Source: a virus (lineage: Duplodnaviria; Caudoviricetes). From it: a DNA stretch of 59,036 nucleotides. Location: positions 1 to 59,036 of IMG/VR virus record IMGVR_UViG_3300032258_000001. One strand, 5' to 3'. The notes under the pieces were generated by a model. It had not been told where the DNA came from and did not search any database. It saw only the letters and a list, made by a program, of their open reading frames with translations. The translations under genes were made by a program, and so were the position numbers. Positions 20,000 to 48,292 of this stretch are shown piece after piece (positions within the stretch are counted from its first letter, which is position 1; each line of letters opens with the position of its first letter).

Positions 20000-20875
20000 T
20001 CACTTTTCGAAAAACTTCTCGCACACTTCGTTGAACTCCTTGTCGTGCTGCTGGGCCATGGCCTCCAGCACTGGTATAAGGTCAGCCCTGTCGAGCTCCC
20101 ATTTCGGGTCGACCTCGACCGGGTTGAATATCTCGCATTTGGCGAAACCGAACTGCTTCGCCACGAACTCGGACCTAATCTCGTTGACACGGGTGATGAA
20201 GTGCAGCAGTGGGAAAACCCAGTGCAGCCTCGACCAATGTCTAACCTTGCGCATATCCCGCTTTGTGGGCGGAAGACGGCCCGTGCCCAGCACCATGATC
20301 TCCATATCGCCATACTCGATACCCAGCTTATGGTGCAATGCCGCCGCAACTTCTGTTACCGGCATATTCGCCATCAGCCCGCCATCTACATAGCGTAGAA
20401 AAGGAGGAAAGTAGGTAGGTGCTGCGCTCGTGGCTCTGGCCACCGCCCACGCTTCTCGTTTATGGTCCTCATTCTTCGTCAACGTATCGAACACCTTCGG
20501 CTTGTCGTTCTCGAAGTCAATGGCAGGTATGACTATCGGTGCCTTCAGCTCCTTGAGAGTCATGGGCAGCAGAGTCTGCAACACCTGCTCGATGTCCTTG
20601 TTGTCGTACTTCGTCCTGAACGGATTCATACGCCACCACCAGGGCATCTTCGGAAAAGCCTTCTTGCCCAGTGTCTTGAAATCATGCAAGACGTTCTGGG
20701 CGCTGGTACCGCTGGCATAGGCCAGGGACAGTATCCCGCCTATAGATGTGCCAGCGAAACAATCAAATTTATCCAGCAGGTTCTCCTCTCTGAACCTGCC
20801 TGCCAGTAAAGCGGCCGGTATGGCGCCGAACACACCGCCACCAGCTACCACCAGAACTTTATAAGAGGAGCGCAT
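20000..20875 (-). CDS. patatin-like phospholipase
   Basis: Oxyanion 'GGGVFG', nucleophile 'GTSIG', 'ARATSAAPTYF', catalytic 'DGG'; likely start ATG 20875 just after the upstream stop. Confidence 0.92.
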   Translation of the reverse strand: MRSSYKVLVVAGGGVFGAIPAALLAGRFREENLLDKFDCFAGTSIGGILSLAYASGTSAQNVLHDFKTLGKKAFPKMPWWWRMNPFRTKYDNKDIEQVLQTLLPMTLKELKAPIVIPAIDFENDKPKVFDTLTKNEDHKREAWAVARATSAAPTYFPPFLRYVDGGLMANMPVTEVAAALHHKLGIEYGDMEIMVLGTGRLPPTKRDMRKVRHWSRLHWVFPLLHFITRVNEIRSEFVAKQFGFAKCEIFNPVEVDPKWELDRADLIPVLEAMAQQHDKEFNEVCEKFFEK

Positions 20876-20877
20876 GC

Positions 20878-21294
20878 TCAATGAGCCGCCAGGGCCTTGG
20901 ACACACACATGCCCTGACACTGCTGGGGCCTCACGGTTCTCTTGAAATCAATCATGGAGAAGAACTTCTTCAGGGGGCCTTTCTCCGGTACCATGATGTC
21001 GTTCGGAGCGATTATCTCCGCATGATGCTCTTTATCCAACTCTGCCACCAGCAACGGTATCTCCTTGGTCTCCGCCGCCGAGAACAACTCCCTTGGTGGG
21101 ATGCTGTAGTCGAGCTCTCTGTCACAGATGATCAGCGAGGCCTTTTCCTTGCCCTCGTAGATTTCGATCAACGCTTCCTGTACAGTGGGTACCTTCACGA
21201 TGAGGCACTCTCGGCTCTTTACCTGCTCGACAGCCCTTGCAAGCTTGTCGGCTTGCACTAGCCCACTGGTTACCCATATAATCTTAGTCATCAT
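20878..21294 (-). CDS. receiver (REC)-like domain protein, degenerate
   Basis: 138 aa; 'KIIWV...TVQEALIEI...SLIICDREL...EIPLLVA' follows the CheY-like pattern but lacks the N-terminal acidic pair. Confidence 0.45.
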   Translation of the reverse strand: MMTKIIWVTSGLVQADKLARAVEQVKSRECLIVKVPTVQEALIEIYEGKEKASLIICDRELDYSIPPRELFSAAETKEIPLLVAELDKEHHAEIIAPNDIMVPEKGPLKKFFSMIDFKRTVRPQQCQGMCVSKALAAH

Positions 21295-21871: not shown

Positions 21872-21901
21872 AAGATAGCATGAAACCACACTTTTATCCA
21901 C
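21872..21901 (-). promoter_or_regulatory. candidate phage promoter GTGGATA-N17-TATCTT
   Basis: Minus strand gTGGATA aaagtgtggtttcatgc TATCTTagg in the AT-rich intergenic gap; also has an extended -10 TG. Confidence 0.6.
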
Positions 21902-23610
21902 TAAGCATAGAAGTCGGGTGCGCGGTTCTTGGTTGCCATGTTGTTCGATTGGTAATGCAAGTCAACCGTGAACAGGAACGGATCGATGTTTCCGGCGTCC
22001 GCACTCAGATAGGTGCGGCACAGGATAAGCCCGTCAACCTCGATGGCAACACCACCGAGCTGGCCGCTACCGTCCGTAAGCTGCACCTCACTGACGACAT
22101 GCCCGTACTGAGGGACGTTTATCGCCGATGCATCGTGCGTAACCGTCTTGTTCGTCGTCGCCGGGAACGCGGCCGGGGTCGTGTCGTTACGCTTCTGGAA
22201 CGTGGCGTCGAAACCCCAGGTGATCGAATTGGCGGTATCCGCAGTGTCCAGGCCCCAGTGTGCGTGGATGTAGAGCTCACTGCCTGGGACATAATCATGG
22301 GGAATGTGGAACACGTGCCACACTTCGTCGCCGACGACATCAAATTGATATGCGCTGATGTTCGTGCGGAACACGGCCCAGGTCGGGGTATTAGATCCGC
22401 CCTTTACGCTGATGTCCGACGTGATGTCACGCCAGCCGAAAGATGGACTTGCTGGGTCTACCTTGATGCCGAGCCCGGACGTCTTCGGTAGGATAAGGCC
22501 AGTAGTTGCGTAGATGTTCGTTGCCTGGGCCTCTCCGTCTACGTCCAGTAGTTTAGCCGGAGTGCTCGTTCCGATACCCACACGATCTGTAGAAGCATCG
22601 GCGAAGAGTAGGTTAGGATCGGTATCGCCCTCGACGCGGAAGTCGCGGTCATTACCTGCTTCGTTGAAGACCGCACCGCCGTCTACGTTTAGCGTGGTGC
22701 CATCCCAAGTAAGCCTTGTCTCTGTAGTAAACTGACCCGCTGAACCATCGTAAAAGGCTATGGCATTGTGATTTTCTACACCATTCCAAAATGGGAAATA
22801 CCTTATTAGTTCGTCTATGTTATCGCCACTCGCGTTGGACGTGACACCACTTGTCTGCCCCGTAAGCACTTCGCCTGTGAGGAACGAGCCCGATGTTCTC
22901 TTCCATACGAGAACGGTTCCCGAACCTGAGTCGCTGACTACAGTTGCCATCTCTCCCGTCACGTTTCCTTCTATGATTTCGCCCGTTTGGTAAGTGCCAC
23001 CTGCTTGGTTGTTATATCCGATGCCTACGTTTCCATTGTGATTGGCGAATAGATCATTGGTCTCGTCCCATACGATGCCGACAGGAGAAAGACTACCGCG
23101 ATTGATCATCATGCCTGAGAATCGATCCGTCGTGCCAGCACCCGTTTCATCATCGTTCAGGTACAGCAGGGGGTCGTCCAGCTCCTGCCGGAACAGTTTG
23201 TATAGAGCAGCGTACTCGTTCTCGGTCAGCGTTTTGAACACAGTCCATGTGCCTGTGTGTTTCAACAGCTGCCCGTTACCTGCATTATAGACAATCCAGC
23301 CGTCCTCCGGCACGTAGAACTTCCATGCGCTGCCGTCCCACTCGGCTATATGGCCAGCGTGGCCTGCCCATGCATCCGTAGGAGGGTTATCCACCAAGTA
23401 CCGATCACCAAGTGTGGGGCTTCCCGGAGGCGTGGTCTGTTCTCCTAGCACCAAGTCCTGGAAGGACAGCTTCTTGAGATTTCCCAGTATCGCCCCGGAG
23501 TTGTCGTCACTGGCGTCGGGGGTGGTCGTTACGGTGACCTTGGAAAAGGTAGGCTCAGCCGCCGTGTCCAGGTCCTGGTCCATCTTCTGTGCGTGTCTGT
23601 TGTGACTCAT
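21901..23610 (-). CDS. fibre protein with DUF2793-like domain
   Basis: 'TTPPGSPTLGDRYLV...AWAGHAGHIAEWDGSAWKFYVPEDGWIVY' (DUF2793 pattern); 'RVGIGTSTPAKLLDVDG' fibre repeat. Confidence 0.7.
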   Translation of the reverse strand: MSHNRHAQKMDQDLDTAAEPTFSKVTVTTTPDASDDNSGAILGNLKKLSFQDLVLGEQTTPPGSPTLGDRYLVDNPPTDAWAGHAGHIAEWDGSAWKFYVPEDGWIVYNAGNGQLLKHTGTWTVFKTLTENEYAALYKLFRQELDDPLLYLNDDETGAGTTDRFSGMMINRGSLSPVGIVWDETNDLFANHNGNVGIGYNNQAGGTYQTGEIIEGNVTGEMATVVSDSGSGTVLVWKRTSGSFLTGEVLTGQTSGVTSNASGDNIDELIRYFPFWNGVENHNAIAFYDGSAGQFTTETRLTWDGTTLNVDGGAVFNEAGNDRDFRVEGDTDPNLLFADASTDRVGIGTSTPAKLLDVDGEAQATNIYATTGLILPKTSGLGIKVDPASPSFGWRDITSDISVKGGSNTPTWAVFRTNISAYQFDVVGDEVWHVFHIPHDYVPGSELYIHAHWGLDTADTANSITWGFDATFQKRNDTTPAAFPATTNKTVTHDASAINVPQYGHVVSEVQLTDGSGQLGGVAIEVDGLILCRTYLSADAGNIDPFLFTVDLHYQSNNMATKNRAPDFYA

Positions 23611-23620
23611 CTAGTACTCC

Positions 23621-25795
23621 TTATACATGTTCGCCATCGCGGAACTGCAATGCCTTAACGAGGAAGGATATGCCATAGATATTGCCAGGGCGGGCATCCG
23701 CTTCTATGTTAAGCCATAAGAGCTCTGCCGGGACGCCTGCGCCCTCCGTACCCTTGTCGGAAATGTCCAGCTCGAATTCGAATGTGGTCTGTTCACCGGC
23801 CGTCATTGTCTTGGTGACGGAGTCGCTCACCTCTCCTGTTGTTGACGTCGGGTCTGTTGTGCTGATCGTGTCTCCGTCAACACTCGAGTTAAGCCAGGCT
23901 ATCATGGTCAGGTCGTCAGTGGTGGGTGTGCCTGTACCCGCTGAAGAAACTACGATAACTTCAACCTTCAGCGGAGCGGAAGTGTCCACCCATCGCGGAA
24001 GCGGGAAGGCCGCGCCGACGCTGTCGCCGTCACTGTTGAAGTTGTTGTTGATGAACCCTGCCTTGCAGTTCGTACTGCGCCACAGGTCCTGGTCCGTCAG
24101 AGCGCCCCCGACGTCCTGGAAGCTGTTCCAGAACACCGGTATGCCGACATAGGCCCTGGCCTTGCCGAACATCTCGCGATAGCCGTCCGAATTGAGTTCC
24201 GTACGGTCGGTATGCAGTTTGATCTGCTCGAACGTCGGCGGAGTGGTTATCGTGGCCGTCGTGATGCGGAAGCGTATCCAGTAATAGTTCGTTCCAAGCG
24301 ACGGCGGGTCGTTCCTGGCCCAGTCGGAGTCTATCCGCGGGTCGAAGGTCATCTGGTAGCTGCCAGCCGCCGCGGTGAACTTGGCGCCGTCCTGGCGATA
24401 GTACGGAACGCTGCTCTGGCAGGTCATGGTGTTGAACGCCGTCCACGCCGAGCCGTCCCAGTATTCCGCCACCATGTCGCCTGAGCCGAGAACGGCAGCG
24501 ACTGTGGTGAGGAACTTGATGCCGAAGAACCGATGGTAGTCCGACGCCGAGATGGGAACCCTGGAGCCCAGGTACAGGGCGTCGTCGACGTCCGAACCCA
24601 TAGGGACCGTGCTGCCGTCAGGACTGGACGCTTCTGTAGTCCAGTCCGTGTAGGACGTGAGTCCGTCGTCGTAGGTGTAAACCAGCATGCCATTGACGTA
24701 GCTGTCGCCGCCGCCGAAGGCTGATTCACGCGGGAAGCCTGGTGACCCTACATGCAGTTCCGCCAGCGTCGTCCATGACTCGTCTCCAGGGACCAGGCTC
24801 AGGAAGCTCGCCTGGAGGACGGCCTCGGGGCTGATGGCGAAGGTGTCGGGGTTGGTGATACCGAATCCGCGGGAGATCGTCCCTGCACCGGCCTGGTAGT
24901 TGGCGACGGTGTTCTCGAGCATACCTGCGTTGTACCCCTCGAAGATGCTGCCGCTGCCGGTGTTGTCCACGCCATAATCGTTCTCGTTGAAGATGCCGGC
25001 ACGTACAACGAGCTTCCCGCCTGACTCTACGAACGCGCCCTTGGTGGCCAGCTTGACTGCGACTTCGTTGGCGTCCAGCTCCGCGGAATTGGAGCAGCGG
25101 ATGCCGTTTACGACACCGTCCTCTTCGGAGAACAGCCCGAGGACATGGACATGCGTCCCGGACCCGGTCGCCCAGACCAGGTCGGTAAGCGCCGCCGCGC
25201 CGCCGGTTCTGACGTTGTAGATCACCGCGTCGCCAGCCTCAACCTTGATGCCGACCGCCATGGCCTGGCTGAACGGCAGGAACACGGGCTGCCTTACGGT
25301 AACCCTGGCGCTGGCGTTGTTGACGCGCAGACAGCTCGTGACGTTGATGAAGGACACGTCGTCGACGATGTAGCTTCCCGCTACGTCGATGTCGATGGCG
25401 TAGGCCGACGACAGGTGGTTCTGGATGGCCACGTTCCGGATCTTGGCTCCGGAAGTCAGGAAAACGGCTTCCTGGGTCGTGTTGCCCGTGTAGTCCAGTA
25501 TGACGCCGTTAGTCAGTCCCTGCAGCGATACGTACGCCGGAACGGACAGCACATTGTCACCGATGCTGTGCACGCCCGGGTTAAGGTAGACGGCATAGGG
25601 CTTCGACAGGCTTGAATCCGTTATGGTAGCCAGGGCGGCTGCAATGTCGTCGCCTACGCTCAGCCACAATGCCTGCACATTGAGACCGACCTCGGGGGCT
25701 TCGCCGCCACCGGGCGTCTGTACCTTTACGAACGTCGGGGAAGCGGTGCTGCCGACGTCCTGGTCCATCTTCTGTGCAAAATCATTGTGGCTCAT
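23621..25795 (-). CDS. tailspike-like protein with right-handed beta-helix (pectin-lyase fold)
   Basis: 724 aa; 'IAAALATITDSSLSKPYAVYLNPGVH...VPAYVSLQG' is the typical cap preceding a beta-helix, followed by beta-repeats. Confidence 0.65.
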   Translation of the reverse strand: MSHNDFAQKMDQDVGSTASPTFVKVQTPGGGEAPEVGLNVQALWLSVGDDIAAALATITDSSLSKPYAVYLNPGVHSIGDNVLSVPAYVSLQGLTNGVILDYTGNTTQEAVFLTSGAKIRNVAIQNHLSSAYAIDIDVAGSYIVDDVSFINVTSCLRVNNASARVTVRQPVFLPFSQAMAVGIKVEAGDAVIYNVRTGGAAALTDLVWATGSGTHVHVLGLFSEEDGVVNGIRCSNSAELDANEVAVKLATKGAFVESGGKLVVRAGIFNENDYGVDNTGSGSIFEGYNAGMLENTVANYQAGAGTISRGFGITNPDTFAISPEAVLQASFLSLVPGDESWTTLAELHVGSPGFPRESAFGGGDSYVNGMLVYTYDDGLTSYTDWTTEASSPDGSTVPMGSDVDDALYLGSRVPISASDYHRFFGIKFLTTVAAVLGSGDMVAEYWDGSAWTAFNTMTCQSSVPYYRQDGAKFTAAAGSYQMTFDPRIDSDWARNDPPSLGTNYYWIRFRITTATITTPPTFEQIKLHTDRTELNSDGYREMFGKARAYVGIPVFWNSFQDVGGALTDQDLWRSTNCKAGFINNNFNSDGDSVGAAFPLPRWVDTSAPLKVEVIVVSSAGTGTPTTDDLTMIAWLNSSVDGDTISTTDPTSTTGEVSDSVTKTMTAGEQTTFEFELDISDKGTEGAGVPAELLWLNIEADARPGNIYGISFLVKALQFRDGEHV

Positions 25796-26119: not shown

Positions 26120-26941
26120 CTATGAGTTTAAGTAAGGTGGTGTTGTTTTGTACGGGTGGCCACCTGGAAGGTTTGCGTCCAGGCCCCACTTGTGGGCAAG
26201 GTAGCCTTCAACCTTTTGGCGCGTCGCATCATCAGCCTGATTAAGAACTACCATCTCGCCAAGATTGGTTACTATCTTAGAATAGTAAAAACCATCAACA
26301 TCACGATAATAGGCTCCGACTCTAAACGTGTCTTCCACGACATTAACCGGCCTCGACGAGAAAAATATTCTGGTAAATTCCGTTCCGTTCTCGAATATCT
26401 TCGCATCTGTAATATCGGCAGAAGCGGCTCTTTGACTAGAGTAGAGATAGCCTTCCTCAGCCCCGGGAATCGTAAGAACCGGATCATAGTAAACGTAGGT
26501 TGAGTAGTAATACCGAAGGCCGCTGTTCGAAGTCGCTCCCATAACAACTCCGCCAGGAGCCTGCTGATCATCACCTAGCTGGCATATCGTCCTGGGGCCT
26601 GTCTGCGCCGGACCTTTCGTGAGAGCCGCAACTACTGTAAGAGCGTTGTCCCCGGTAAGCCCGAACCCACTCATTTCGAGATAGTTGGCACCGTTGAAAT
26701 ATAAGGCATTCTTGCCTCCTAAAACAACTGTTTTGTTAGCCAGGGGTTGGAGTCCGCCACCCACTTGAGCCAAGTGTCGATCGTTTCCACTCTTGTCGTC
26801 CCATTGGGATACGAATCCGCCGGTTTCAACGATAGTAGAGAGGTCGTCTGCATCGTACCATGCATGGGTCGCCATTACAGCTGGAGTCCACAGGAACGGC
26901 TTTCGTGCGTTATTACTACTGTCTACTATATTCGTGCTCAT
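26120..26941 (-). CDS. LamG/concanavalin-like receptor-binding domain protein (1 repeat)
   Basis: 'AWYDADD...VSQWDDKSGN...KVEGYLAHKWGL..LPGGHPYK'. Confidence 0.7.
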   Translation of the reverse strand: MSTNIVDSSNNARKPFLWTPAVMATHAWYDADDLSTIVETGGFVSQWDDKSGNDRHLAQVGGGLQPLANKTVVLGGKNALYFNGANYLEMSGFGLTGDNALTVVAALTKGPAQTGPRTICQLGDDQQAPGGVVMGATSNSGLRYYYSTYVYYDPVLTIPGAEEGYLYSSQRAASADITDAKIFENGTEFTRIFFSSRPVNVVEDTFRVGAYYRDVDGFYYSKIVTNLGEMVVLNQADDATRQKVEGYLAHKWGLDANLPGGHPYKTTPPYLNS

Positions 26942-27150: not shown

Positions 27151-29400
27151 CTATGCCGTCGGTGGACTGAATCTGTACGGGTGCGTTGACGGCAGCTGGC
27201 TTACCAATCCCCACTTATGGGCCAGGTAGCCCTCTACTTTTTGTTTGTCATCCAAGCTCAATTCAGTATCAAACCATAACAGTTCACCAAGTTTATAGAA
27301 CTGAGTTGGACCCACATCTAAGTCCGCTCTCCCCATTATCCTATTGAGGGCAAAAGAGTTGGTTGAAACCATCTCAATAACGTTGGCTCCAGTTCGGACT
27401 GCCGTATCTGAATGTCCTGTTGCAACTGCACTGTCAGAACCACCATTGAGGCTATATTTTCCTGTGTTAGTTCCAAGACCATCAAAGGATGTCTGTGTAT
27501 CATCCCATCTCACAAACTCTTCTGGGCCACCGCTATCGATATTTCCAAACATCATAATCTTGTTTGGTGAACTAGGCTCGACAGAAACGTCATATACAGC
27601 AAAACATGATTTGACCGTATCGGCATTAGCCACAGCCATATCAGCAGAACCTTCGACAGCATTGCCTGTTAGAACATTGAGTCCATTGATCGTGGCGTTA
27701 CCCGTTAATGGCTGATTTGCTCCTGCACCCTGTGTAGCGTGGTTACCGTTACCACTCTTGTCATCCCATTGACTGACCGCACCGGCGGTTTCAGTGATTG
27801 TGTCTGCATCAGCAGCATCATACCACGCAGACGTGGTGAGCTGACTTGGCTCCCACATGTTCACGCCGGATTTGTTCTTTGTGGGCGGTACGTGGCGGTA
27901 GGGATGGTTCAGCGGCAGGTTGGCCGTGAGGCCCCACTTGTGGGCGAGGTACCCTTCAATGCGTTGCCGGGTTGCCTGCGAGCAGTCTTCAACAATAATG
28001 ACCTCTCCGTATTTACCTGTAAACTTCTTCGTGAGTCCCGAGTTGATTCCGAGCAGGAACGTGCAGGGTGTATCCAGCTTCGTCGTATACGCCCCATCCG
28101 GTGTTCGCTTGACACCATCAACGAAGGCATTGCTGATGCTACTGTCCCAGTCAAAGTTCACATTGAACAGGCGGAAACCCGTTCCATTATAAGGGCCGCC
28201 AGTAAGGTCATTACTGGCACCGACACCTCTTACAGCCAGACGTCCGTCCCAGCTTCCAAATGTTTTTGAGATTAGGTTAAAGTCATTCGGAGTCGTACCG
28301 AGTGTACCGAACATACCGTCAAAGTTGCTGTTAGATGCGTCAAATTCTGTGACTGAAAAGACGGCGAAGTTACCCGAAGTAGGTATGGGGAACGAGGTCT
28401 TCTCCATATAGTCGCTATTTGCTACGAGTACATTTAGACCGTTCTGTGTGTCTACGCCTGTGGCGAATTGATCTGTTCCGACTGCCTGTACGAGGTGCTC
28501 GTCATCACCACTCTTATCATCCCACTGGGATACCGCACCGGCGGTTTCGGCTATAGTGTCTGCATCAGCGGCGTCATACCAAGCAGTGGTTTTGATGTCG
28601 CTTGGCAGCCAGAGCTGCTCCTGCTGGACGGCTTGTGTCGGTGGGTTCAGCTTGTAGGGGTGGTCGTAGGGGAGCTGCGCTTCCAGGCCCCACTTGTGGG
28701 CAAGGTAGCCCTCGATGCGCTTACGGGTGTCATCAGATACATCTTTCGTTAGGATAATCTCACCAATATCTCCTTGGAGAAAGTTTCCAGTGAACGCACC
28801 TATTCTAAGTTCTGTTGCACCGAACGCACCAGTATATGGGGCATCACTTGATGGTGTTCCTCCGTTTACACGCACTCTGCCGCCCACGCTGTCATATACC
28901 ATACCACCAATAAACGGTTCACCATAAGTTATATCTACAGTTCCACTACTTGTACTGTTTCGTGTAACCCTAATATTTTCATTTGTAGCTCCTCTCAAAA
29001 AAGCTACACCAAGAGGGTCACTGAAGTCAGTACCTCCAGCATTAAGACCAACTATCCTCGCACCTCCAAATGATCCATTTTCCATCGTACAGACTGCTAC
29101 AATCTGCACGTCTGGGTCTGTCAATGAGAAAGAAGTGGATACCATTAAGTCGTCAATTCCATCAAACTGTAGGGCATTGAGACCGTTTATTGCCCCTATC
29201 GTTGGCTGTGCGGAACCTGTTCCTTGAGCCACATTGTATCCGTTGCCGCTCTTGTCATTCCATTGGCTTACGGCACCGCCAGTCTCGGCGATTGTATCGC
29301 TGTCCGCGGCATCATACCAGGCTGCTGTCTGAATAGCGGCAGGCGTCCACTTCTTGAACTTGGTGGCGTTACTTATACGTTTTATCAGTGACTTTGCCAT
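27151..29400 (-). CDS. protein with three tandem LamG-like 'EGYLAHKWGL' domains
   Basis: 749 aa; three ~245-aa units, each AWYDAAD...SQW.DKSG ... EGYLAHKWGL...LP..HPY...PP. Confidence 0.8.
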   Translation of the reverse strand: MAKSLIKRISNATKFKKWTPAAIQTAAWYDAADSDTIAETGGAVSQWNDKSGNGYNVAQGTGSAQPTIGAINGLNALQFDGIDDLMVSTSFSLTDPDVQIVAVCTMENGSFGGARIVGLNAGGTDFSDPLGVAFLRGATNENIRVTRNSTSSGTVDITYGEPFIGGMVYDSVGGRVRVNGGTPSSDAPYTGAFGATELRIGAFTGNFLQGDIGEIILTKDVSDDTRKRIEGYLAHKWGLEAQLPYDHPYKLNPPTQAVQQEQLWLPSDIKTTAWYDAADADTIAETAGAVSQWDDKSGDDEHLVQAVGTDQFATGVDTQNGLNVLVANSDYMEKTSFPIPTSGNFAVFSVTEFDASNSNFDGMFGTLGTTPNDFNLISKTFGSWDGRLAVRGVGASNDLTGGPYNGTGFRLFNVNFDWDSSISNAFVDGVKRTPDGAYTTKLDTPCTFLLGINSGLTKKFTGKYGEVIIVEDCSQATRQRIEGYLAHKWGLTANLPLNHPYRHVPPTKNKSGVNMWEPSQLTTSAWYDAADADTITETAGAVSQWDDKSGNGNHATQGAGANQPLTGNATINGLNVLTGNAVEGSADMAVANADTVKSCFAVYDVSVEPSSPNKIMMFGNIDSGGPEEFVRWDDTQTSFDGLGTNTGKYSLNGGSDSAVATGHSDTAVRTGANVIEMVSTNSFALNRIMGRADLDVGPTQFYKLGELLWFDTELSLDDKQKVEGYLAHKWGLVSQLPSTHPYRFSPPTA

Positions 29401-29414
29401 AAGGCGTTACCTCC

Positions 29415-30473
29415 TTACGGTGCAATCCAGTAATCCGTTCCATTGTGCCAGAACTTCTCGCCGGCATAGAGTACCGAGATTTCCCGGCCGGTCGTTCCGA
29501 TGACGCCTTCGACGTTGCCGCTGGTGGTCTTCGCGAATGCGCTGTTGGCGCCGGCGATCTTCTTGATACCTACCAGGAAGTTGTCATAGTCGGCGCCTAC
29601 GGGAAGGATCACGTCGACGTCACCTCCGGTGGTATCAACCAGCAGCAGTTCGTCTATGTCCTGAACGTTGTACGGGCTGTCGGCGAACGTGATGGTCTTG
29701 CCGTACAGATCGTTGCTGCGCGGGATGCTGTCACTTGGACGCCACGGCAGCACCTTGATGGTGTCGGCATCTACAACTTCGGCTACCGGATCGCTGAGGT
29801 ATGTCATACCCTGTGGCTCAGTGGCCGTCAGCTCACTAGCTGTAGCACTGAGGAACAGATACTCACCAACAGGGAACCCGTGTGATGGCCAGGGTACCTT
29901 ACCGTGTGAAACCACGATGAAGTTGTCGTCGTCAACTTTAAGGATAACGCCTTGTGTCAGCGTTTCCCTGTCGTCAGCCTGTGCGGCCGTCCAGGTACCG
30001 GCGTCGTTGTATACCGGATCACCGGTATCGAAACCGTGAGCCACGACGTTATAGATGTCGTGGGTGTAAGTGGCATGCTCCGTGGCTGTCAGATGGTAGT
30101 ACTCGTCTGTAGTACCACCCTGGAGATCGCTCCTGTCATTGTGGAGGAGGTTCGTCGCTTTGGCGTCTACGTATGCCTTGACGGACTGCTGTGACGGAAC
30201 CTTGGTAGCGTCGTCACCCGACATATCGTCCTGGTCCAGGAAGTAACCATTACCTACCAGGGAGGTGTCGGCATTCATCGTGGCGCCGGCCGCATCCACG
30301 TTGGTGGTGTCAGTGACATCGGCACCAGCTTCTATGTTGTCCAGCTTATCTGCCTGGGCTACCGTCATCAACCCCTTCTGGGCGGGGCCGGGACTGGTAG
30401 GCTGTGCGTTTTGAATATCATCAGTACCGTCGATATGTTCTGCGGCGTGTAATTTATTGTGTCCTGAAGCCAT
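29415..30473 (-). CDS. fibre/structural protein
   Basis: 352 aa; common phage fibre motifs 'GLMTVAQADKLDNIEAGADVTD', 'VPSQQSVKAYVD', 'HNDRSDLQGGTTDEYYHLT'. Confidence 0.65.
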   Translation of the reverse strand: MASGHNKLHAAEHIDGTDDIQNAQPTSPGPAQKGLMTVAQADKLDNIEAGADVTDTTNVDAAGATMNADTSLVGNGYFLDQDDMSGDDATKVPSQQSVKAYVDAKATNLLHNDRSDLQGGTTDEYYHLTATEHATYTHDIYNVVAHGFDTGDPVYNDAGTWTAAQADDRETLTQGVILKVDDDNFIVVSHGKVPWPSHGFPVGEYLFLSATASELTATEPQGMTYLSDPVAEVVDADTIKVLPWRPSDSIPRSNDLYGKTITFADSPYNVQDIDELLLVDTTGGDVDVILPVGADYDNFLVGIKKIAGANSAFAKTTSGNVEGVIGTTGREISVLYAGEKFWHNGTDYWIAP

Positions 30474-30503: not shown

Positions 30504-33191
30504 CTAGCTCTGCATTATGGATATTTCTACTCCGGCCTGTACGAACGCCCCTACGGCATAGGGTTTCTCATCCCCCGCCGTCCAGTCGTCATACGGGCTT
30601 TGGCCGATCTGCTGGACCCATCCGAGCTTCCCTGAGGCCGATATGGCTCTGCCAGCGAGAGCGTTCCACGCCTTCCCTATGACGGGGGCATAGGTCGCAC
30701 GGTCGAGAAGGCCATTGTTGACCCCCCAAGAGAACCCGAATGTGAAGAATGATGTACCTGAGGTTTCGGGGTATGGAGGGTCGGTGGCGTCCAGTAGGTT
30801 TGACCCCCAGAAACCATCGTCACGCTGGCAGGCGGCCAGAGCCACGGCCATCTCAGTGAAGACGGTTTCGTACTCTGTCCGATATGGACTGTCCGAAGGT
30901 AGATCCGTGAGTACCCGAGCCAGCCCTGCGAAGACCCAGCCGTTGCCACGCGACCAAAAGACCTTTGACCCGTTCGCGGTTTGATTGGCTGGATAGAACC
31001 AATTCTCGTCACGGTACCACAAGTGGGATGTCTCGTCGTACAGTCCCCCCGACCAAGTTGATCGGCAGAAAGTCCAGAAGTCATTCGCCGCATCGTGGTA
31101 GGAATTGTCCCCCTGTATGACCCCCATCTTCGTGAAGGTGGCGGGAGCCATGTACACGGTATCACACCAAGTCCAATAGTTCACGGCTGGAAGCAGGGCG
31201 ATCTGAGCGTCAAGATTAGCCTTGATGTTGCTGATCTTGCTCGGGTCTGTACTGCCCTCATATTCATAGTAGTCAGCATAGACTTGACCGCATAGTTGGT
31301 CATCCGCGTGATAGGCTCCAGGGAATCCACCCCTTGTCGGCTTGTTCCAAGAGAAACGGTTCCCCCAGTTCTCAACATAGGTGTCCACGGCTGGGGCGTC
31401 CGTTTCTTCCAGCAGACGCATCGCGCCCGTCAGGTATGCGGCGTCGTCCCACGTTCTATCCATTACAGTGTACGGGTAATTGGTCGCCCAATAGGTGTTC
31501 ACCAGTTCAGCCGTGGATAGGGCGACGGCGGCGGTCGGAAGGCTTGAGCTGATGTATGACGGAGCTGGCGTCGTGGACGCTCTAGGTGGCTCTAGCTTGT
31601 ACGGGTGCCCCACGGGGAGGCTGGCAGTCAGCCCCCACTTCCACGCGAGATAGCCTTCCAACTTTTCCCGTGTTTCGTCACTGACCTCATCCTTGATCGC
31701 GATGACCTCACAGATCGCGCCGTCCCACGCGAATTCTACTATGGAGTCGGGGGCGGGTGCCCTTCTCAGCGAAGCTCCAACTCCCCACCCGTTGCTGAAC
31801 AGGAGGTCGTGACGGACTCCCGAGGTCAGATCCTGTAGGTTGTCTCCGCCGTCAATGCCGATACGCCAACAGGCACCCGCCTCCCTCACGAAATTGGTCT
31901 GATGGGAGTCCGTGTTGATGCTTGGCAGAGTGTTCTTGGATGCCGCGCATCTGTCAACAAAGGTTGCGGCTGTTGCCTCGTCAAACACGGAAAGCACTTC
32001 GTCGGTCAACGCTCCCGTCTGTGAACCGAGGGCAATACCATTGGAATATTCTGTGCCGTATATCGAGGCAAGGAATGGGGGGCTGTAGGACGGTGGTGAG
32101 GGGAATTTTACTGGGAGGGCTTCCGTGATCACCTCATTTGACTTGAAGACAATGAACAAGCTCTTGATGTCGTTGTCCAACCCCGTGGCGTCGAACATAT
32201 GGGTATAATCTTCTTTCGTGAACTCAATCGCATTGAGACCGTTGACCGTGGTCTGCGTTGGGCGACGGGCAGGGTTCGGTTGGAGCAGGAACTTCCCAAC
32301 CTTCCCCGACTTGTCTCCCCATGAGGCATACTTGCCGTTCTCGTCCATGATCAATGTGGTCGTGTCGGCTCCGTCATACCACCCCTCGGTCGTTATGTCT
32401 GATGCCGAGAATAGCGGGGGTGCATCTACACCGACAGTCGGTTTGTCGTATTTGTACGGGTGTAAGTAAGGGAGGTTAGCTGTCAGTCCCCATTTGTGGG
32501 CGAGGTAGCCTTCAATCTTCTGACGTGTGGATTCGGTACAATCCTCGATCAACAGAATCTCGCCATATAGCCCCGATAGTGACGGATTGCCGAAGTTCCT
32601 GCCTATCTGTATGTCATCATATAGTGTAACGGGTGACGCCACATAGTCTGATCTACTATTGTAGTTCTGACCGTTGATGTAAATCCCCAAGAGGTCATTG
32701 CCTGCGTCGGCAAACGCACTTACAATACAAGGATCATTGAACGGGGAGTTGGGTGCGCTGAACTCCCGTGTATATGCACCGTTAATAAACTTTAGGCTAG
32801 GATTGAAACTTGTGTCATCCGTCCCATCTATAACCGCAAATTTGTCCCCCCCTGCCGTCCGTAGTGATACTATAGCGGGGTCATTGACGTTGGATTGGAG
32901 AGTAAAGTCATATACTGCAAACATTGCTATGTTTCCCGAAGGGACTGCGATATTGGCTCCAAGGTTCTGCAACAAATCGGCATTGAACGTCAGGACATTC
33001 AGACCGTTCAGCGTATCTTGACCGCTTACGGGTCTAGTGACTCCCGTTCCTGTCAGATCATAGCCATTACCACTTTTGTCGGCATATCCCGTAACTGGTG
33101 CTCCCGTGATCGTGGAGAGATCACTTGGGTCATACCATGCCACTTTAGCAATGTCGGCAGGTGTGAACGGTCGTGTTCCTATAAGTGCCAT
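30504..33191 (-). CDS. two LamG-like domains fused to a GH105/GH88 unsaturated glycuronyl hydrolase
   Basis: Likely start ATG 33191; C-terminal (alpha/alpha)6 motifs 'HADDQLCGQ', 'WTWCDTVYMAP', 'FWSRGNGWV', 'ETSGT', 'YAVGAF' as in YteR-like GH105. Confidence 0.85.
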   Translation of the reverse strand: MALIGTRPFTPADIAKVAWYDPSDLSTITGAPVTGYADKSGNGYDLTGTGVTRPVSGQDTLNGLNVLTFNADLLQNLGANIAVPSGNIAMFAVYDFTLQSNVNDPAIVSLRTAGGDKFAVIDGTDDTSFNPSLKFINGAYTREFSAPNSPFNDPCIVSAFADAGNDLLGIYINGQNYNSRSDYVASPVTLYDDIQIGRNFGNPSLSGLYGEILLIEDCTESTRQKIEGYLAHKWGLTANLPYLHPYKYDKPTVGVDAPPLFSASDITTEGWYDGADTTTLIMDENGKYASWGDKSGKVGKFLLQPNPARRPTQTTVNGLNAIEFTKEDYTHMFDATGLDNDIKSLFIVFKSNEVITEALPVKFPSPPSYSPPFLASIYGTEYSNGIALGSQTGALTDEVLSVFDEATAATFVDRCAASKNTLPSINTDSHQTNFVREAGACWRIGIDGGDNLQDLTSGVRHDLLFSNGWGVGASLRRAPAPDSIVEFAWDGAICEVIAIKDEVSDETREKLEGYLAWKWGLTASLPVGHPYKLEPPRASTTPAPSYISSSLPTAAVALSTAELVNTYWATNYPYTVMDRTWDDAAYLTGAMRLLEETDAPAVDTYVENWGNRFSWNKPTRGGFPGAYHADDQLCGQVYADYYEYEGSTDPSKISNIKANLDAQIALLPAVNYWTWCDTVYMAPATFTKMGVIQGDNSYHDAANDFWTFCRSTWSGGLYDETSHLWYRDENWFYPANQTANGSKVFWSRGNGWVFAGLARVLTDLPSDSPYRTEYETVFTEMAVALAACQRDDGFWGSNLLDATDPPYPETSGTSFFTFGFSWGVNNGLLDRATYAPVIGKAWNALAGRAISASGKLGWVQQIGQSPYDDWTAGDEKPYAVGAFVQAGVEISIMQS

Positions 33192-33192
33192 A

Positions 33193-33828
33193 TTAGCCGA
33201 TCCTCTCAAGTTTGACGTTATCCACGACACCGTAGCCAGTAGCTCCATCAATAACGACGGCAAGGTCATTTCCGACTAATGCCGCATCCGTAACAGGATC
33301 AGTCTCATAAGTACCTACAAAAGTCTGTAGTTCACCTGTATCTGTCACCGTACCGCTTAGTGTTATAATCACATACGGATTAAACGCACTTGCCCCTGCC
33401 GCAAAGTCCTGCCTATCGAAGAGAGCGGGCAAGGCACAGAGATGAACTTCATATATTCCTCCTGCTTCACCATAACCAAATGCCGAGATATGACGATTAT
33501 AACCAATATCAACGGTGAGTTGATACTTAACGGTGTTGACATTTATATCACCGATCACACCGTCGGCAGTACAAGCTCCGCTATTGGTATACAACATACC
33601 GAGGGCTTGTTCATTCCCGACTTGTGCAGTTACCCAGTCCCCGCCATCTTTGTTGATCATCCCAAAGCGACCTGCACCAAAGCCAGTATCAGCACCAAGC
33701 CAGTTGCCATTATCGGGTAATTGACCTTCGACATAGCCACTTATCACTGGGGACTCGAAGTCCTCAGTAAACAGCACGGCGGGAACGAGTAGCCGCTTAC
33801 CAGTAGGAATGATCAGGTTAGTACTCAT
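33193..33828 (-). CDS. putative carbohydrate-binding jelly-roll protein
   Basis: 211 aa; 'LFTEDFESP' start and 'VDNVKL' end typical of CBM-like beta-sandwiches. Confidence 0.5.
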   Translation of the reverse strand: MSTNLIIPTGKRLLVPAVLFTEDFESPVISGYVEGQLPDNGNWLGADTGFGAGRFGMINKDGGDWVTAQVGNEQALGMLYTNSGACTADGVIGDINVNTVKYQLTVDIGYNRHISAFGYGEAGGIYEVHLCALPALFDRQDFAAGASAFNPYVIITLSGTVTDTGELQTFVGTYETDPVTDAALVGNDLAVVIDGATGYGVVDNVKLERIG

Positions 33829-42592: not shown

Positions 42593-44774
42593 AATTCTCG
42601 GTCAACTCGTCGTTGAAGAGGTTGCTGTCTTCGCCGCTGCTCGTGTTGTGCAGGAACAGCGTCAGTTCGGAAACGTTCTGGAAGTTGTCGCGGAGGCTGT
42701 CCTCCAGTTCGCTCATCTTCTCGTGGCCATACTGGTCCTTGAACTGGTTGTAATGCCAGTAGAACATGAACAGGATGCGGCCGATGCGGTCCATGGCCAG
42801 CATGAGATCCTGCAGGTAGTCTTCCACCATACGGGACGGGCTACCGGAAGATGCGAGCGACTTCAGCACGCTGACGTCCATGACGTCCTTGACACCCTTG
42901 TCGCTGGCGTCGACGACCTCGTCCACCTCTTCGGTTGCCATCTCCGGGTCCATGTACTCGCTTTCCTCATATGGCGTGGACTCCTGGAATCCTACCGAAG
43001 GCTCCTCATCGTGGCTGTCGGGCCACTTCGGATCGGACGCAGCGTACTTGACCAGGAAGGTTTCGCGCGAAGGCTTGCCTACGCTCGCTTCCTTGTTGAT
43101 GATCATGCGGGCGTCGGCGGCGGAGATTCCGTGATCCTTGACCAGCTTGATCAGGGCGGCCTGCTTGCTGAGCATGCGCTCCCTACCGAACTTGCCGTCG
43201 ATCATGTAGTCGACGCCATCGGTCTGGACGGTTAATGAACGCCAACCTGCAGTCTTGATGATCTTGTGCTTGATGGTCTCCAAGTCGCCGACCGGCATTT
43301 CGCCGCCCCAGCACTTGCAGGCCACGATGCGTGCACCTTCCGGAATGTAAAGATGGGTACCCTTGCGGCAGACCATGCCGGGTTTACCGGTCAGCTCCAC
43401 GATACCATCATCATCACACCATTCATCTGTGTCGCTCGGCAGCTTTGCCCCGGCGATCTTGTTGCCGACAAGCTTGCCATTGTTCATTTCGAAGCGTTCA
43501 TAGTTGCCCTTCGAGTCGATGGCCAGGCAGCTGTGCCATTTGTAGGAGTCCGAGCCCATATCGTAGGCTTCCTCAGTGTCTCTGTCAGCGTCCTTACGGA
43601 ATTTGGACATAAGGCTGGTAGGCTTGATGCCGATGCCGCTGATGTCGGTGTCTTCCCGGGCTTCCAGGTTACGACACAGGATGGGCCGATCGCAGACGTG
43701 CGCTTCGTTCGGCTTGTTCAGGTCGATGACCATATAGCTGAACTCTTTGATGTCCGCGCTCTTGTGCTCCGGGTTCCTGGTGAGCTTCGACCAGCTGGTC
43801 TTACCCTTCGGGGCTACAATAATGTAGCACTTCTTGAAGCTACCATCAGCCATGAGGACTTCAAAGTAGCCATTCTTGCCTGGTGTAGCCAAGCTGCCAC
43901 TGGCCTGCTTGTCGACGAAGACGGTGGAGGTCTTCTTCCGTCCATCGACTACATAAAGGCCATCCCGCAGGACGACTTCCTTAGCCTTGTCATCGAGTTT
44001 CTTGACGGCATCGGTGTCTTCCAGGGTGATGATCTGCAGCTGGTTCTCGTTGTGGACTGCATCCACCATGAGGGGATACGTCCCGTCCTGTACTTCGCTA
44101 CCATCGGGGGGAGGCTGATTGTCCTTGACGGATTCGGCTATCTTGCGGATGTCCTCCGGTTCATAGAACTTGAGTATTGCGTTGGCGAAGTCCGGGTTGG
44201 TGTTCAGGGTCCTGAAGAAGCTGACTGCCGCATGTTTTCCGAGGCGCGGTAGCCACTCCCTTAGGTCAAATCTGTCTTTGCCGCGTTCATCGTAGACGAG
44301 GACCATGTCCGCGATGTCGTCGTGGATTCCTTCTTTGTCGATGAAGCTCGCGCCCTTGAACATGATGCTCTTGCTCTTGGAATCACGGCGGAGGCTGACG
44401 GCGTCTGCCCGCTTGGGCTTGCTCTTCGGCATGTCTCCGGACTTCTCGCCCAGCAGTGCCGTACGGTTCTGGCGGATGTAGGAGACCCATGTGTCCTTGG
44501 CCGGTACGAACTGGCTCTTCTCCGGCAGATACATCATGTCGTATCCACGGATGCGGCCATTGAGGAAGAACGCCGGGACATAGATCCACTGCTCGCCTAC
44601 CTTATAGACCATAACACCCATACCACGTGTGCCATCGTCGTCGCGTTCGACCAGCTGGAAGCCGACCTTGTATTCGTTGAGAGACGGCAGCCGTTGAGTG
44701 ATCTCGGCATCCGCCACGTTTGCAAGCTTGACTTCAAAATCGTCAGCAGCAGTCTTCCTGATAACACCTATCAT
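42585..44774 (-). CDS. putative internal head protein
   Basis: 729 aa, ATGA-coupled to the RNAP beta'-C gene; about ten KxA motifs. Confidence 0.55.
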   Translation of the reverse strand: MIGVIRKTAADDFEVKLANVADAEITQRLPSLNEYKVGFQLVERDDDGTRGMGVMVYKVGEQWIYVPAFFLNGRIRGYDMMYLPEKSQFVPAKDTWVSYIRQNRTALLGEKSGDMPKSKPKRADAVSLRRDSKSKSIMFKGASFIDKEGIHDDIADMVLVYDERGKDRFDLREWLPRLGKHAAVSFFRTLNTNPDFANAILKFYEPEDIRKIAESVKDNQPPPDGSEVQDGTYPLMVDAVHNENQLQIITLEDTDAVKKLDDKAKEVVLRDGLYVVDGRKKTSTVFVDKQASGSLATPGKNGYFEVLMADGSFKKCYIIVAPKGKTSWSKLTRNPEHKSADIKEFSYMVIDLNKPNEAHVCDRPILCRNLEAREDTDISGIGIKPTSLMSKFRKDADRDTEEAYDMGSDSYKWHSCLAIDSKGNYERFEMNNGKLVGNKIAGAKLPSDTDEWCDDDGIVELTGKPGMVCRKGTHLYIPEGARIVACKCWGGEMPVGDLETIKHKIIKTAGWRSLTVQTDGVDYMIDGKFGRERMLSKQAALIKLVKDHGISAADARMIINKEASVGKPSRETFLVKYAASDPKWPDSHDEEPSVGFQESTPYEESEYMDPEMATEEVDEVVDASDKGVKDVMDVSVLKSLASSGSPSRMVEDYLQDLMLAMDRIGRILFMFYWHYNQFKDQYGHEKMSELEDSLRDNFQNVSELTLFLHNTSSGEDSNLFNDELTENFA

Positions 44775-46603
44775 TGTTGGACCTCTTGTATGTTTACTAG
44801 CCTCGGAAAATACGATGTGCTTTGTTTTTCGCTCATGGCGCCGCGCTCGGCCGCCCGAGTCATTACTCGCTTGAGATTCTCTCCTGCGAGTCGTGTCAAC
44901 AGATCCTTATCCGTCGACATGAAATCCTGCGCTCGGGTAACTTCGGGCTCAAACGGCGGCGGCTCCGAGTGAGCCAGCACCGTCTTGACGCCTGCCTTCT
45001 GCAATCGCTTGGCAATACGCGGAGTCACGCGCGTGCCTATCGTATAGTGCAGATAGGGTTTCTCTAAGTATAATTTATTCGCTGTAGTGACACTTTTCAA
45101 GGCAGCCCCCTCACGAGGCTTCCAGTTCGACGCTATCGTGGAGTAGTCCACGACGTCGTCCGGCAGGTATCCTTCAACCCCGTCCGGGTCGGTCACGCGC
45201 ACCCTGCCGATAAACTGTCTGGCCAGATATTCAAGGTTACGGCGGTTGGTGCTCGCCCCTGAATTCTTGAGAATCTCACGGAGATGCTTGAGGAAGTAGA
45301 CTCGTCCCTCTCCGATTCCTTTATGCTTAACGACCTCGGCAGCGTTCATCATCCCATCGGAGATCATGTCGCCGGCCTCAACTACGTCGCCCTGCCTGAC
45401 TTTGACCTCGTAGCCTTGTGGGACATAGTGCCGGTCCGGGCCTATCATGACGTAATGGCCGCCTTGCGGCGCTTTCTTGATCCCGGCTACCTTGCCGTCA
45501 CGCTGTGCGACGGTGGCTGCCCCTGGAAACTCCTTCGGCACCTGAAAAAACTTGTTGACGGCCGAAAAGCCGGTCTCTATCCTGGAGGTCTCACCGACTT
45601 CTCCACCTACATGCTTGGAGGAGATGGCACTCTGCGTCAGAGGTTCTATGAACGTACGTGCGCCGGTAACCCCGACAGCGTCTCCTATGTTCGGCAACGC
45701 GCCGGTCTCTCGGACTCCGGCGCACTTGGCACAGATGCCCTCCTTAGCCTGGCACGTCAATGCGCTGCGACCAACGATCTCCCTGTCCTTAACGAGCGCG
45801 ATATTTTCATCGTCTAAAATAGTTCCGGCCTTGAGCTGCCCGGTATCCTTGGCCAGGACGGTACCGACATTGTCCTGGTCGTCTCCGGCCAGCTCGATAC
45901 CTTCGGTCGTGCCACAATCCTCTTCGGTGACGACACTCCTGTGTCCTACATTGGTGATCTGTTTACCGAAGTAGCCGCTGTCCGCCGTAGCGAACTGCAC
46001 ATCCACATAACCCTTCCGGGCTCCATGGCTCGCAGCCCAATATGCCAGTGGGCTCACGCCCTCAGCGTATCCCTCGAGGCTCGGGTAGGGGACTGGGCGT
46101 CCCTTGGAGTCGGCACTGATCAGGTTACCTAGTAGAAGCTGACGCAGCTGGAAAGGCTTGCCACGGCTGCCACTGTTGATCTGAAGTGCGAACGATCCGT
46201 CGCGCTCGGTTACAGCATTGAGCAGATCCTGGTCGATGGTCTTGCTAAAGTCCGTGACCATTTTCATGACGGTTTTGGTCTTCTGCTCCGTGGACATAAG
46301 GGGGCTATCATACACCTGGGCGACTTTGGCCTTCAGCTCGTCACGCCGCTTGGCGATCTCAGGCGGGACCTTGAAGTCATCGGGGCGTAGGGAGGCTACC
46401 CGCCCATACAAGGATACGGTGTTGACTGCAAGCGTGTTAAGCTTGTGCAACACATCCTCATACTTCTCCGGGTCCTCCTGTGCGAGCCTAGTGTAAAAAG
46501 CCTCGATCTCCTTCTTTCCCATGACCCCTTTGAATTGGTCCCGGTACTTTTCGGGGATCGCGGCCTTCACCTTCTCGCGGCCCAATGTCGTGACTATCGC
46601 CAT
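44771..46603 (-). CDS. rpoC: phage RNA polymerase beta' subunit, C-terminal part
   Basis: 'TTLGR', 'INSGSRG', bridge helix 'SHGARKGYVDVQFATADSGY', 'VTEEDCGT', Zn site 'RSALTC...GICAKCAG', trigger region 'GDAVGV...EPLTQSAISSKHVGG'. Confidence 0.92.
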   Translation of the reverse strand: MAIVTTLGREKVKAAIPEKYRDQFKGVMGKKEIEAFYTRLAQEDPEKYEDVLHKLNTLAVNTVSLYGRVASLRPDDFKVPPEIAKRRDELKAKVAQVYDSPLMSTEQKTKTVMKMVTDFSKTIDQDLLNAVTERDGSFALQINSGSRGKPFQLRQLLLGNLISADSKGRPVPYPSLEGYAEGVSPLAYWAASHGARKGYVDVQFATADSGYFGKQITNVGHRSVVTEEDCGTTEGIELAGDDQDNVGTVLAKDTGQLKAGTILDDENIALVKDREIVGRSALTCQAKEGICAKCAGVRETGALPNIGDAVGVTGARTFIEPLTQSAISSKHVGGEVGETSRIETGFSAVNKFFQVPKEFPGAATVAQRDGKVAGIKKAPQGGHYVMIGPDRHYVPQGYEVKVRQGDVVEAGDMISDGMMNAAEVVKHKGIGEGRVYFLKHLREILKNSGASTNRRNLEYLARQFIGRVRVTDPDGVEGYLPDDVVDYSTIASNWKPREGAALKSVTTANKLYLEKPYLHYTIGTRVTPRIAKRLQKAGVKTVLAHSEPPPFEPEVTRAQDFMSTDKDLLTRLAGENLKRVMTRAAERGAMSEKQSTSYFPRLVNIQEVQQ

Positions 46604-48262: not shown

Positions 48263-48292
48263 AATATACCAGCTATGTCACTTATTTTCCAC
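48263..48292 (-). promoter_or_regulatory. candidate phage promoter GTGGAAA-N17-TATATT
   Basis: Minus strand gTGGAAA ataagtgacatagctgg TATATTaaa spanning the RNAP stop codon, about 30 nt before ATG 48232. Confidence 0.65.

Follow-up and report, generated by a model that had tools for sequence, protein, structure and literature searches.

A GH105-type, probable unsaturated glucuronyl hydrolase domain fused to lectin-like repeats of a viral family among the fibre genes of a phage

What would a phage do with an enzyme otherwise met in bacterial glycan-utilisation loci, placed among its own fibre genes and joined to a lectin-like arm? The question is raised by a gene at positions 30504..33191 (minus strand) of the IMG/VR record IMGVR_UViG_3300032258_000001, a linear stretch of 59,036 bp that we analysed over its whole length (hereafter, the window). 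The depolymerases known from phages are endo-acting, being lyases or hydrolases borne on tailspikes, and we know of no exo-enzyme acting only on lyase products in a phage adsorption apparatus; a full-text search of the literature found no report of a GH105/GH88 unsaturated glucuronyl hydrolase on a phage. An earlier inspection of the letters alone (the sequence-only reading) had proposed that the gene encodes such a hydrolase fused to lectin domains and that, together with a beta-helix spike encoded nearby, it could form a two-step system for degrading uronic-acid polysaccharides. Our analysis identifies the protein as a real and rare addition to the phage-borne glycan-processing proteins. By a modest preference, we read it as an accessory protein of the fibre cluster, whose lectin-like arm would carry an active, exo-acting unsaturated glucuronyl hydrolase for chain ends that a lyase has cut in an acidic polysaccharide of the host.

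The longest open reading frame (ORF) at this locus, 30504..33269, encodes 921 residues and would overlap the upstream gene (all window coordinates given here are on the minus strand). The true start is probably Met27 at nt 33191, because this codon lies one base past the upstream stop codon, has GAGAGGA ahead of it and equals the gene call in the protein collection (P0001, 895 residues). The coding sequence then spans 30504..33191 and encodes 895 residues plus the stop; residue numbers below refer to this form unless the 921-residue form is named. From its N-terminus, the protein consists of a first lectin-like repeat (residues 1–263; 32403..33191), a second, more divergent one (residues 264–532; 31596..32402), a linker rich in Pro, Ser and Thr, LEPPRASTTPAPSYISSSLPT (residues 533–553; 31533..31595), and, directly behind the linker, a GH105/GH88-type (alpha/alpha)6 barrel (residues 554–895; 30507..31532). 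The frame is unbroken across the linker, and the enzyme and the repeats are fused in frame; the next downstream gene begins 31 nt past the fusion stop, behind a strong AGGAGG. Within the first 40 residues, the highest Kyte-Doolittle 9-mer is 1.1, compared with 2.1–3.1 in five bacterial relatives with leader-like N-termini. By this crude measure, which is hydrophobicity only with no signal-peptide predictor behind the value, a leader-like N-terminus is absent from all four GH105 proteins that we found in phage contexts. The fusion to two repeats, the P/T/S linker before the enzyme and the lack of a signal peptide, all noticed in the sequence-only reading, were thus recovered.

The enzyme domain matches Pfam PF07470 (Glyco_hydro_88), a family that takes in both CAZy GH88 and GH105, at E 3.8e-63 and 214 bits (cut-off 26.6) over profile positions 7–349 of 352. 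The match covers residues 592–917 of the 921-residue form, or nt 30519–31499, which falls within the 30504–31510 of the sequence-only reading, and the same result was obtained from the DNA. A sequence search of the PDB ranks 5NOA first (5e-67), followed by 4Q88 (8e-61) and 4CE7 (4e-41), the last titled as an unsaturated beta-glucuronyl hydrolase of ulvan degradation, while YteR, the founding member of GH105, is matched only at 7e-10. The AlphaFold2 model has a predicted local distance difference test score (pLDDT) above 90 over residues ~555–895 and forms a barrel of twelve long helices. Target-normalised template modelling (TM) scores from Foldseek are 0.88–0.91 to 5NOA and 4Q88, 0.85–0.87 to 4CE7 and 0.74–0.76 to YteR, with 29–37% identity to the 5NOA/4Q88/4CE7 subgroup, and the E values of GH105 structures (1e-11 to 7e-27) compare with 8e-08 and weaker for GH88 unsaturated glucuronyl hydrolases (UGLs). 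The claim of a complete YteR-like domain at 30504–31510 is therefore borne out by the Pfam profile match, by the barrel fold and by the presence of the four motifs quoted for it: HADD (nt 31299–31310), WCDTVYM (31149–31169), FWSRGNGW (30936–30959) and ETSGT (30753–30767).

Part of the active site can be matched to that of YteR. In YteR, the conserved pocket comprises Tyr41, Asp88, His132, Trp141, Asp143, Met147, His189, Trp211 and Trp217, and Asp143 hydrates the C4=C5 bond, as set out in PMC4528949. In the window protein, W675-C-D677-T-V-Y-M681 has the spacing of YteR Trp141, Asp143 and Met147. The HMMER alignment to 1NC5, which sets query residue 698 of the 921-residue form against chain residue 138, likewise places D677 (Asp703 in the 921-residue form; codon 31161..31163) on the catalytic Asp143. 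The spacing of W746-S-R748-G-N-G-W752 equals that of Trp211 and Trp217, and D630/D631 of the HADD motif are the likely equivalent of Asp88; these alignments did not place equivalents of His132 and Tyr41. Conservation was read by aligning the four phage proteins with bacterial relatives, 148 distinct ones taken from 161 loci. Sixty-seven columns are at least 90% conserved in the bacteria; 52 of the 67 are identical in all four phage proteins, and the other 15 hold mostly conservative changes. The columns that are 100% conserved in the bacteria are all kept in the phage proteins, bar a single Pro, for which the window protein alone has Ala, and the catalytic Asp is invariant across the 148 bacterial and four phage rows. 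Because the motifs, the catalytic Asp, most of the conserved columns and the barrel fold are retained, the domain very probably functions as an enzyme, one that belongs to the unsaturated beta-glucuronyl hydrolase subgroup.

The two repeats that form the arm are clearly related to each other (BLASTP E 7e-14) and both end in EGYLA(H/W)KWGL...HPYK, with His in the first and Trp in the second. The family that they match, in two stretches and at E 1.6e-37, is phrog_10356, labelled 'virion structural protein'; two paralogues encoded downstream match it too. Their assignment to the laminin G (LamG) domains runs through an intermediate: the protein's own sequence reaches Pfam Laminin_G_3 (PF13385) at E 0.089 and 13.4 bits, under the cut-off of 27.6 and over 50 residues of repeat 1 only. 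P0078, a protein that matches PF13385 in three stretches at E 8.6e-25, contains six successive repeats to which repeat 1 aligns (E 1e-11 to 1e-05), including the region round a PF13385 match at 74–221. In the ESM Atlas, the repeats fall, with a score of 0.98, among clusters made up wholly of viruses, and one such cluster is 96% PF13385/Laminin_G_3. Viruses account for 88–100% of the top three clusters by features and of the first four rows by structure, with bacterial clusters lower in the structure list, and the Atlas model has TM scores of 0.81–0.87 to viral proteins of 279–300 residues and 0.78–0.82 to DUF8202, no family rising above the tool's bar. A LamG-like nature of the repeats, with a putative concanavalin A (ConA)-like fold, is supported by this transitive homology only. 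Of the two LamG-like repeats of the sequence-only reading, the repeats as such are real, and their LamG identity is indirect.

Among 50,697 deposited phage records, 14 match the fusion protein. The repeat module is found in 10 of these 14, in Pseudanabaena and Synechococcus cyanophages, Xanthomonas phage Xoo-sp2 and a Rheinheimera phage. In Pseudanabaena phage Pam2 (ON014754.1, 57604-58359), the gene matching the repeats is annotated 'botulinum neurotoxin type A', most likely a mislabel arising from the common lectin-type fold. The enzyme part is matched in only four records: MT836317, a 501-kb Salmonella contig and two short contigs of the same series. The two of these that we judged are bacterial DNA; MT836317.1, deposited as 'UNVERIFIED: Bacteriophage sp.', is a 15-kb bacterial glycan-utilisation locus with DUF2264, BNR_4, GH88-type, GH43, GH97 and HemN-like genes. 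Scans of IMG/VR with increasingly broad motif sets turned up only one other contig with a relative. These few matches agree with the earlier remark that GH88/GH105 enzymes are unusual in phages.

Four GH105 genes in phage contexts could be compared: that of the window, P0002, and one each on the contigs L004 and L002. P0002, a protein of 544 residues whose N-terminus looks cut, is encoded on a contig of 196,989 bp and is 47% identical to the window protein over repeat 2, the junction and the enzyme; judging from this alignment, it has the same fusion. On the metagenome contig L004, a stand-alone GH105 of 359 residues begins 14 nt after a LamG-like gene, with another LamG-like gene and a fibre of 2006 residues or more upstream and an F5/8-type-C protein downstream. 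L002, a 99-kb IMG/VR contig (47% complete) with a T4-type Gp23 head gene, encodes a stand-alone GH105 of 372 residues between fibres of 2053 and 1506 residues. In a FastTree phylogeny of 163 rows, the four phage-context domains form one clade with an SH-like support of 100. The other three are 48–53% identical to the window domain, compared with at most 43% for the bacterial sequences found, the best of which (34–43%) come mostly from Bacteroidota and also from Verrucomicrobiota, Planctomycetota and Acidobacteriota. The phylogeny had been proposed as a way to find the donor lineage, and here it gave no name: the phage clade stands beside ten Bacteroidota rows with a support of only 50, on a long branch. 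Across 151 proteins examined (the 150 best of 1.84 billion cluster representatives, and P0002), the lectin tail and the GH105 motifs occur together only in the window protein and P0002. Many bacterial relatives of the subgroup are fused to binding-type domains and secretion tags, and one, P0025, joins a GH105 domain to Laminin_G_3; it was rejected as the source of the fusion, its opposite domain order and unrelated lectin sequence pointing to an independent event. The partners seen often in the bacterial subgroup are BNR_4 (of the GH145/PL42-type rhamnose-glucuronate lyase fold), DUF4861, DUF2264, F5/8-type-C and type IX secretion tags; where the partner is BNR_4, a single protein would unite a lyase step and a hydrolase step.

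In the window, the fusion gene lies in a fibre and spike cluster, which continues downstream. A 352-residue fibre protein (29415..30473) matches the solved fibre gp28 of cyanophage P-SCSP1u in its N-terminal part, and its C-terminal 207 residues are 37% identical (E 3e-39) to the tip of the giant fibre encoded just upstream of the L002 GH105 gene (L002 9316-9933). This homologous fibre-tip domain adjoins GH105 both in the window and on L002, so that the enzyme travels with fibre genes in otherwise differing phages. The 207-residue domain belongs to no known family and was not found in L004. Two paralogues of the lectin-like arm follow, both matching phrog_10356, one of 749 residues with three repeats (27151..29400) and one of 273 residues with a single repeat (26120..26941). 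Beyond these lie a beta-helix tailspike-like protein of 724 residues with beta-sandwich C-terminal domains (23621..25795), identified from its fold model, and a DUF2793 tail-fibre-like protein of 569 residues (21901..23610). The latter two have their first ~25 residues in common (MSHN..AQKMDQD...PTF.KV). Interchangeable receptor-binding proteins often have their N-terminus in common, and the common segment here looks like an attachment adaptor for two alternative receptor-binding proteins. Small proteins of no known family also occur among or beside the lectin-like genes, one of 211 residues at 33193-33828 in the window and one of 187 residues at 6828-7391 on L004, and by eye the two end alike (..VDNVKLERIG and ..LDTVRIPGC).

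Could the spike supply the lyase that an exo-acting hydrolase of this type would need? Its model (pLDDT 87.5) shows a right-handed beta-helix followed by beta-sandwich domains. The best fold matches in the PDB are tailspikes and capsule depolymerases of phages (LME-1, KP32gp38, K2-2 TSP, Depo32, CBA120 TSP3 and Sf6), with alginate epimerases matched too, so that the modelled fold would fit a lyase, a hydrolase or an epimerase alike. Searches with the spike gave no Pfam family (E up to 10) and no PDB sequence match; PF12708 occurs in only 1 of 36 spike homologues and is absent from both the window record and the L002 record (30% and 47% complete). The L002 record, with GH105 present, encodes neither a spike homologue nor a relative of the LamG proteins, a weak test given that the 99-kb record is 47% complete. 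The sequence-only reading was right, then, in seeing a beta-helix spike at 23621-25795; its suggestion that the spike is a lyase found no marker in these searches, and the two-step idea of lyase plus hydrolase is plausible but unsupported, no lyase having been identified.

Taken together, these observations can be arranged into a mechanism. The two ConA-like modules would form an arm that either docks the protein on the particle or binds polysaccharide as carbohydrate-binding modules do, and the flexible P/S/T linker would bear a catalytically competent GH105-family domain. By analogy with characterised GH105 enzymes, where a chain ends in a 4,5-unsaturated uronic acid on its non-reducing side, C4 of that residue would take up a proton from the conserved Asp, water would add over the C4=C5 bond, and the terminal residue would be released. 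An exo-acting enzyme of this kind would need ends cut by a beta-eliminating lyase, and the protein may trim or grip such ends in the acidic capsule, sheath or slime of the host during adsorption. The identity and fold of the domain, the conserved active-site residues that it keeps, the in-frame fusion and the place of the gene among fibre genes are shown, and the fusion recurs in P0002; the position of the gene and the family of its repeats would place the protein in the virion, an acidic polysaccharide would be its substrate, and a partner lyase is presumed.

Several points weigh against this reading. The evidence for a place in the virion is indirect, namely gene position and domain family, and a search for the basis of the annotation 'virion structural protein' traced none. 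The AlphaFold2 model of the N-terminal ~550 residues failed (pLDDT about 30), and an N-terminal anchor of the kind common to the DUF2793 fibre and the spike is not recognisable in the fusion protein. For YteR His189, no equivalent was placed; the phage proteins have (Y/A)RD there, as do characterised members of the subgroup, 4CE7 included. No lyase family was detected in the ORFs scanned of the window or the L002 record, which are fragments (30% and 47% complete). An exo-enzyme that takes one residue per chain end is, moreover, of no obvious help in passing through a capsule. We hold more tentatively to the stronger proposition that the phage particle displays the active exo-hydrolase on its lectin arm, either as one half of a two-enzyme route through an acidic capsule or sheath or with lyase-cut ends as an attachment cue. 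In the latter version, the ends could include those left by lyases of the host or of its neighbours feeding on algal or plant polysaccharide.

An alternative that dispenses with the lyase would make the GH105 domain a receptor-binding head, its pocket mainly serving to recognise a uronic acid at the end of a glycan on the host surface, which it would hold, and any catalysis serving to release the receptor. Phage fibres usually bear their binding heads at the C-terminal tip, which is where the GH105 domain stands in this protein, and the gene lies beside fibre genes in 4 of 4 contexts (for P0002, only the fusion itself was seen). The presence of GH105 on L002 apart from spike or LamG proteins, and the lack of a detected lyase in the records scanned, also speak for this reading. 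However, a lectin has no need of the catalytic Asp or of the 52 of 67 conserved columns that have been kept over ~50% divergence, as would be expected of an enzyme under selection, and known GH105 pockets are built for a planar unsaturated ring, according to the pocket description in PMC4528949. We regard a mainly binding role as rather improbable, and the retention of the active site favours the accessory protein with a working hydrolase.

The same hydrolase could instead be an auxiliary metabolic enzyme that stays out of the particle and acts inside the infected cell on lyase-derived oligosaccharides, the role of cytoplasmic GH88/GH105 enzymes in bacteria. YteR and the UGL-type enzymes are cytoplasmic, and the missing leader-like N-terminus in all four phage proteins would agree with such a location. 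The fusion to a repeat family that is 88–100% viral in the top Atlas clusters and labelled structural speaks against it, as do the position of the gene among fibre and spike genes rather than metabolic ones in every context seen and the lack of any transporter or downstream uronate-pathway gene among the ORFs scanned. We consider this explanation unlikely; if the protein is nevertheless not on the particle, it would be an unusual auxiliary gene lying among fibre genes.

A different doubt concerns the chemistry, since the domain might itself be a lyase, similar to the PL27 L-rhamnose-alpha-1,4-glucuronate lyases that remove rhamnose caps by beta-elimination. The doubt arises from 5NOA, to which the window domain is closer (5e-67) than to the proven hydrolase 4CE7 (4e-41): its title reads 'Polysaccharide Lyase BACCELL_00875', and BACCELL_00875 is named as a PL27 rhamnose-glucuronate lyase with a beta-sandwich and an (alpha/alpha)6 barrel in PMC8377490. 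The molecule name of the same entry, however, is 'Family 88 glycosyl hydrolase', and the 5NOA chain is a single barrel of 381 residues, aligned from its first residue, which differs from the two-domain PL27 architecture of that description. In addition, a gene closely matching 5NOA (phmmer E 2e-211) comes directly after a BNR_4 (GH145-type) gene in the Bacteroides-like glycan locus MT836317, mirroring the GH145 and GH105 genes described together for B. plebeius PUL5 in PMC8406133. Because of its single-barrel length, the BNR_4-adjacent homologue as in PUL5 and the catalytic Asp invariant across the subgroup, 5NOA itself fits a GH105 hydrolase, and a lyase activity of the window domain appears improbable.

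That a bacterial GH105 gene was misassembled onto phage DNA, or entered as host contamination, is a very remote prospect: the GH88/GH105 matches in deposited-phage records did prove bacterial (MT836317 and the 501-kb Salmonella contig), but here the frame is continuous and includes a linker, the local G+C of 0.57 compares with 0.50–0.62 across the window, the same fusion is present on the independent 197-kb contig of P0002, two further independent contigs hold clade members among fibre genes, and all four form a clade of their own that is closer to the window domain than any bacterial sequence.

For the accessory protein carrying an active hydrolase, the closest precedent lies outside the phages. 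In a viral structure library, the best match of the domain is AaV_078 (E 1.6e-05, 13% identical) of Aureococcus anophagefferens virus (AaV), whose particles package this putative unsaturated glucuronyl hydrolase together with the pectate lyase AaV_038 and ConA-like proteins, as reported in PMC7507832. The likeness is that of a virus particle with this type of enzyme beside lectin-fold proteins. AaV, however, is a giant virus of a eukaryotic alga, its hydrolase is a separate protein said in the same source to derive from the algal host (PMC7507832), and there proteomics detected the hydrolase as well as the lyase, whose identity is established, whereas for the window phage both the lyase and the virion location are presumed. 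With the bacterial 5NOA/4Q88/4CE7 subgroup (Bacteroides, and Nu_GH105 of Nonlabens ulvanivorans), the window domain has in common the Pfam family, the barrel (TM 0.85–0.91) and the active-site motifs, and bacterial members are also often fused to binding-type domains. Those enzymes, in contrast, belong to glycan-utilisation loci and usually bear a leader or lipoprotein signal, whereas the phage enzyme lacks a leader, is joined to a lectin repeat of viral type, lies among fibre genes and falls in a separate clade. Tailspike depolymerases are virion-borne and process host surface polysaccharide during adsorption. Those of Klebsiella (K2-2 TSP, Depo32) and Sf6 resemble the system in being glycan-processing, and the window's own spike has their fold; they differ as endo-acting trimeric beta-helices, while GH105 has the (alpha/alpha)6 barrel fold and would act on one terminal residue after a prior lyase cut. 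The single-repeat proteins of cyanophages (KBS-S-2A CPKG_00053, S-CBS4; phrog_10356) belong to the same repeat family at 29–37% identity, yet they have one repeat and no enzyme, and the KBS-S-2A gene lies between head and neck genes.

Should the particle indeed carry the enzyme in active form, there would be phages that break down host slime by two successive reactions or take the scars left by lyases as a landmark. Among phages it would be without precedent, and it would parallel the enzyme set packaged by AaV. It would widen the set of enzyme families to be mined for phage tools that degrade capsules and biofilms, and would offer glycan analysis a compact GH105 that lacks a leader and brings its own binding modules.

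The phage itself is only partly represented in the window. CheckV puts the completeness of the record at 30%, and the full genome is estimated at roughly 197 kb, of which the window would be about 30%, because two contigs that encode homologues of window proteins measure 194,576 and 196,989 bp. All large ORFs lie on one strand, that of the fusion gene. A nucleotide search with 25 kb of the window found no near relative among the 50,697 deposited phages. The window contains a candidate major head protein (phrog_2522) and genes for a multisubunit RNA polymerase; polymerase and head protein show 25–31% identity to their counterparts in Salmonella phage Arash (181 kb) and in three Vibrio phages of 187 kb, and the fibre and lectin modules resemble cyanophage counterparts. 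No tRNA genes were found in the window, and with the nearest cultured phages, of Salmonella and Vibrio, only 25–31% identical, no host was assigned. In the polymerase region, an ORF of 1808 residues (48278-53704) joins a part of the beta subunit (Rpb2 domain 6) to the N-terminal part of beta-prime (Rpb1 domains 1-3), the C-terminal part of beta-prime being encoded by a separate gene of 610 residues (44771-46603). A weak LAGLIDADG match at residues 1012-1052 and PHROG matches to ribonucleotide reductase and thymidylate synthase at residues 767-874 suggest that the 1808-residue ORF holds an intein. Just downstream of the fibre cluster lies a gene for a patatin-like phospholipase (20000-20920; PF01734, E 1.2e-26), and a sigma-factor-like protein is encoded at 4411-5190 (phrog_351, E 6.5e-09).

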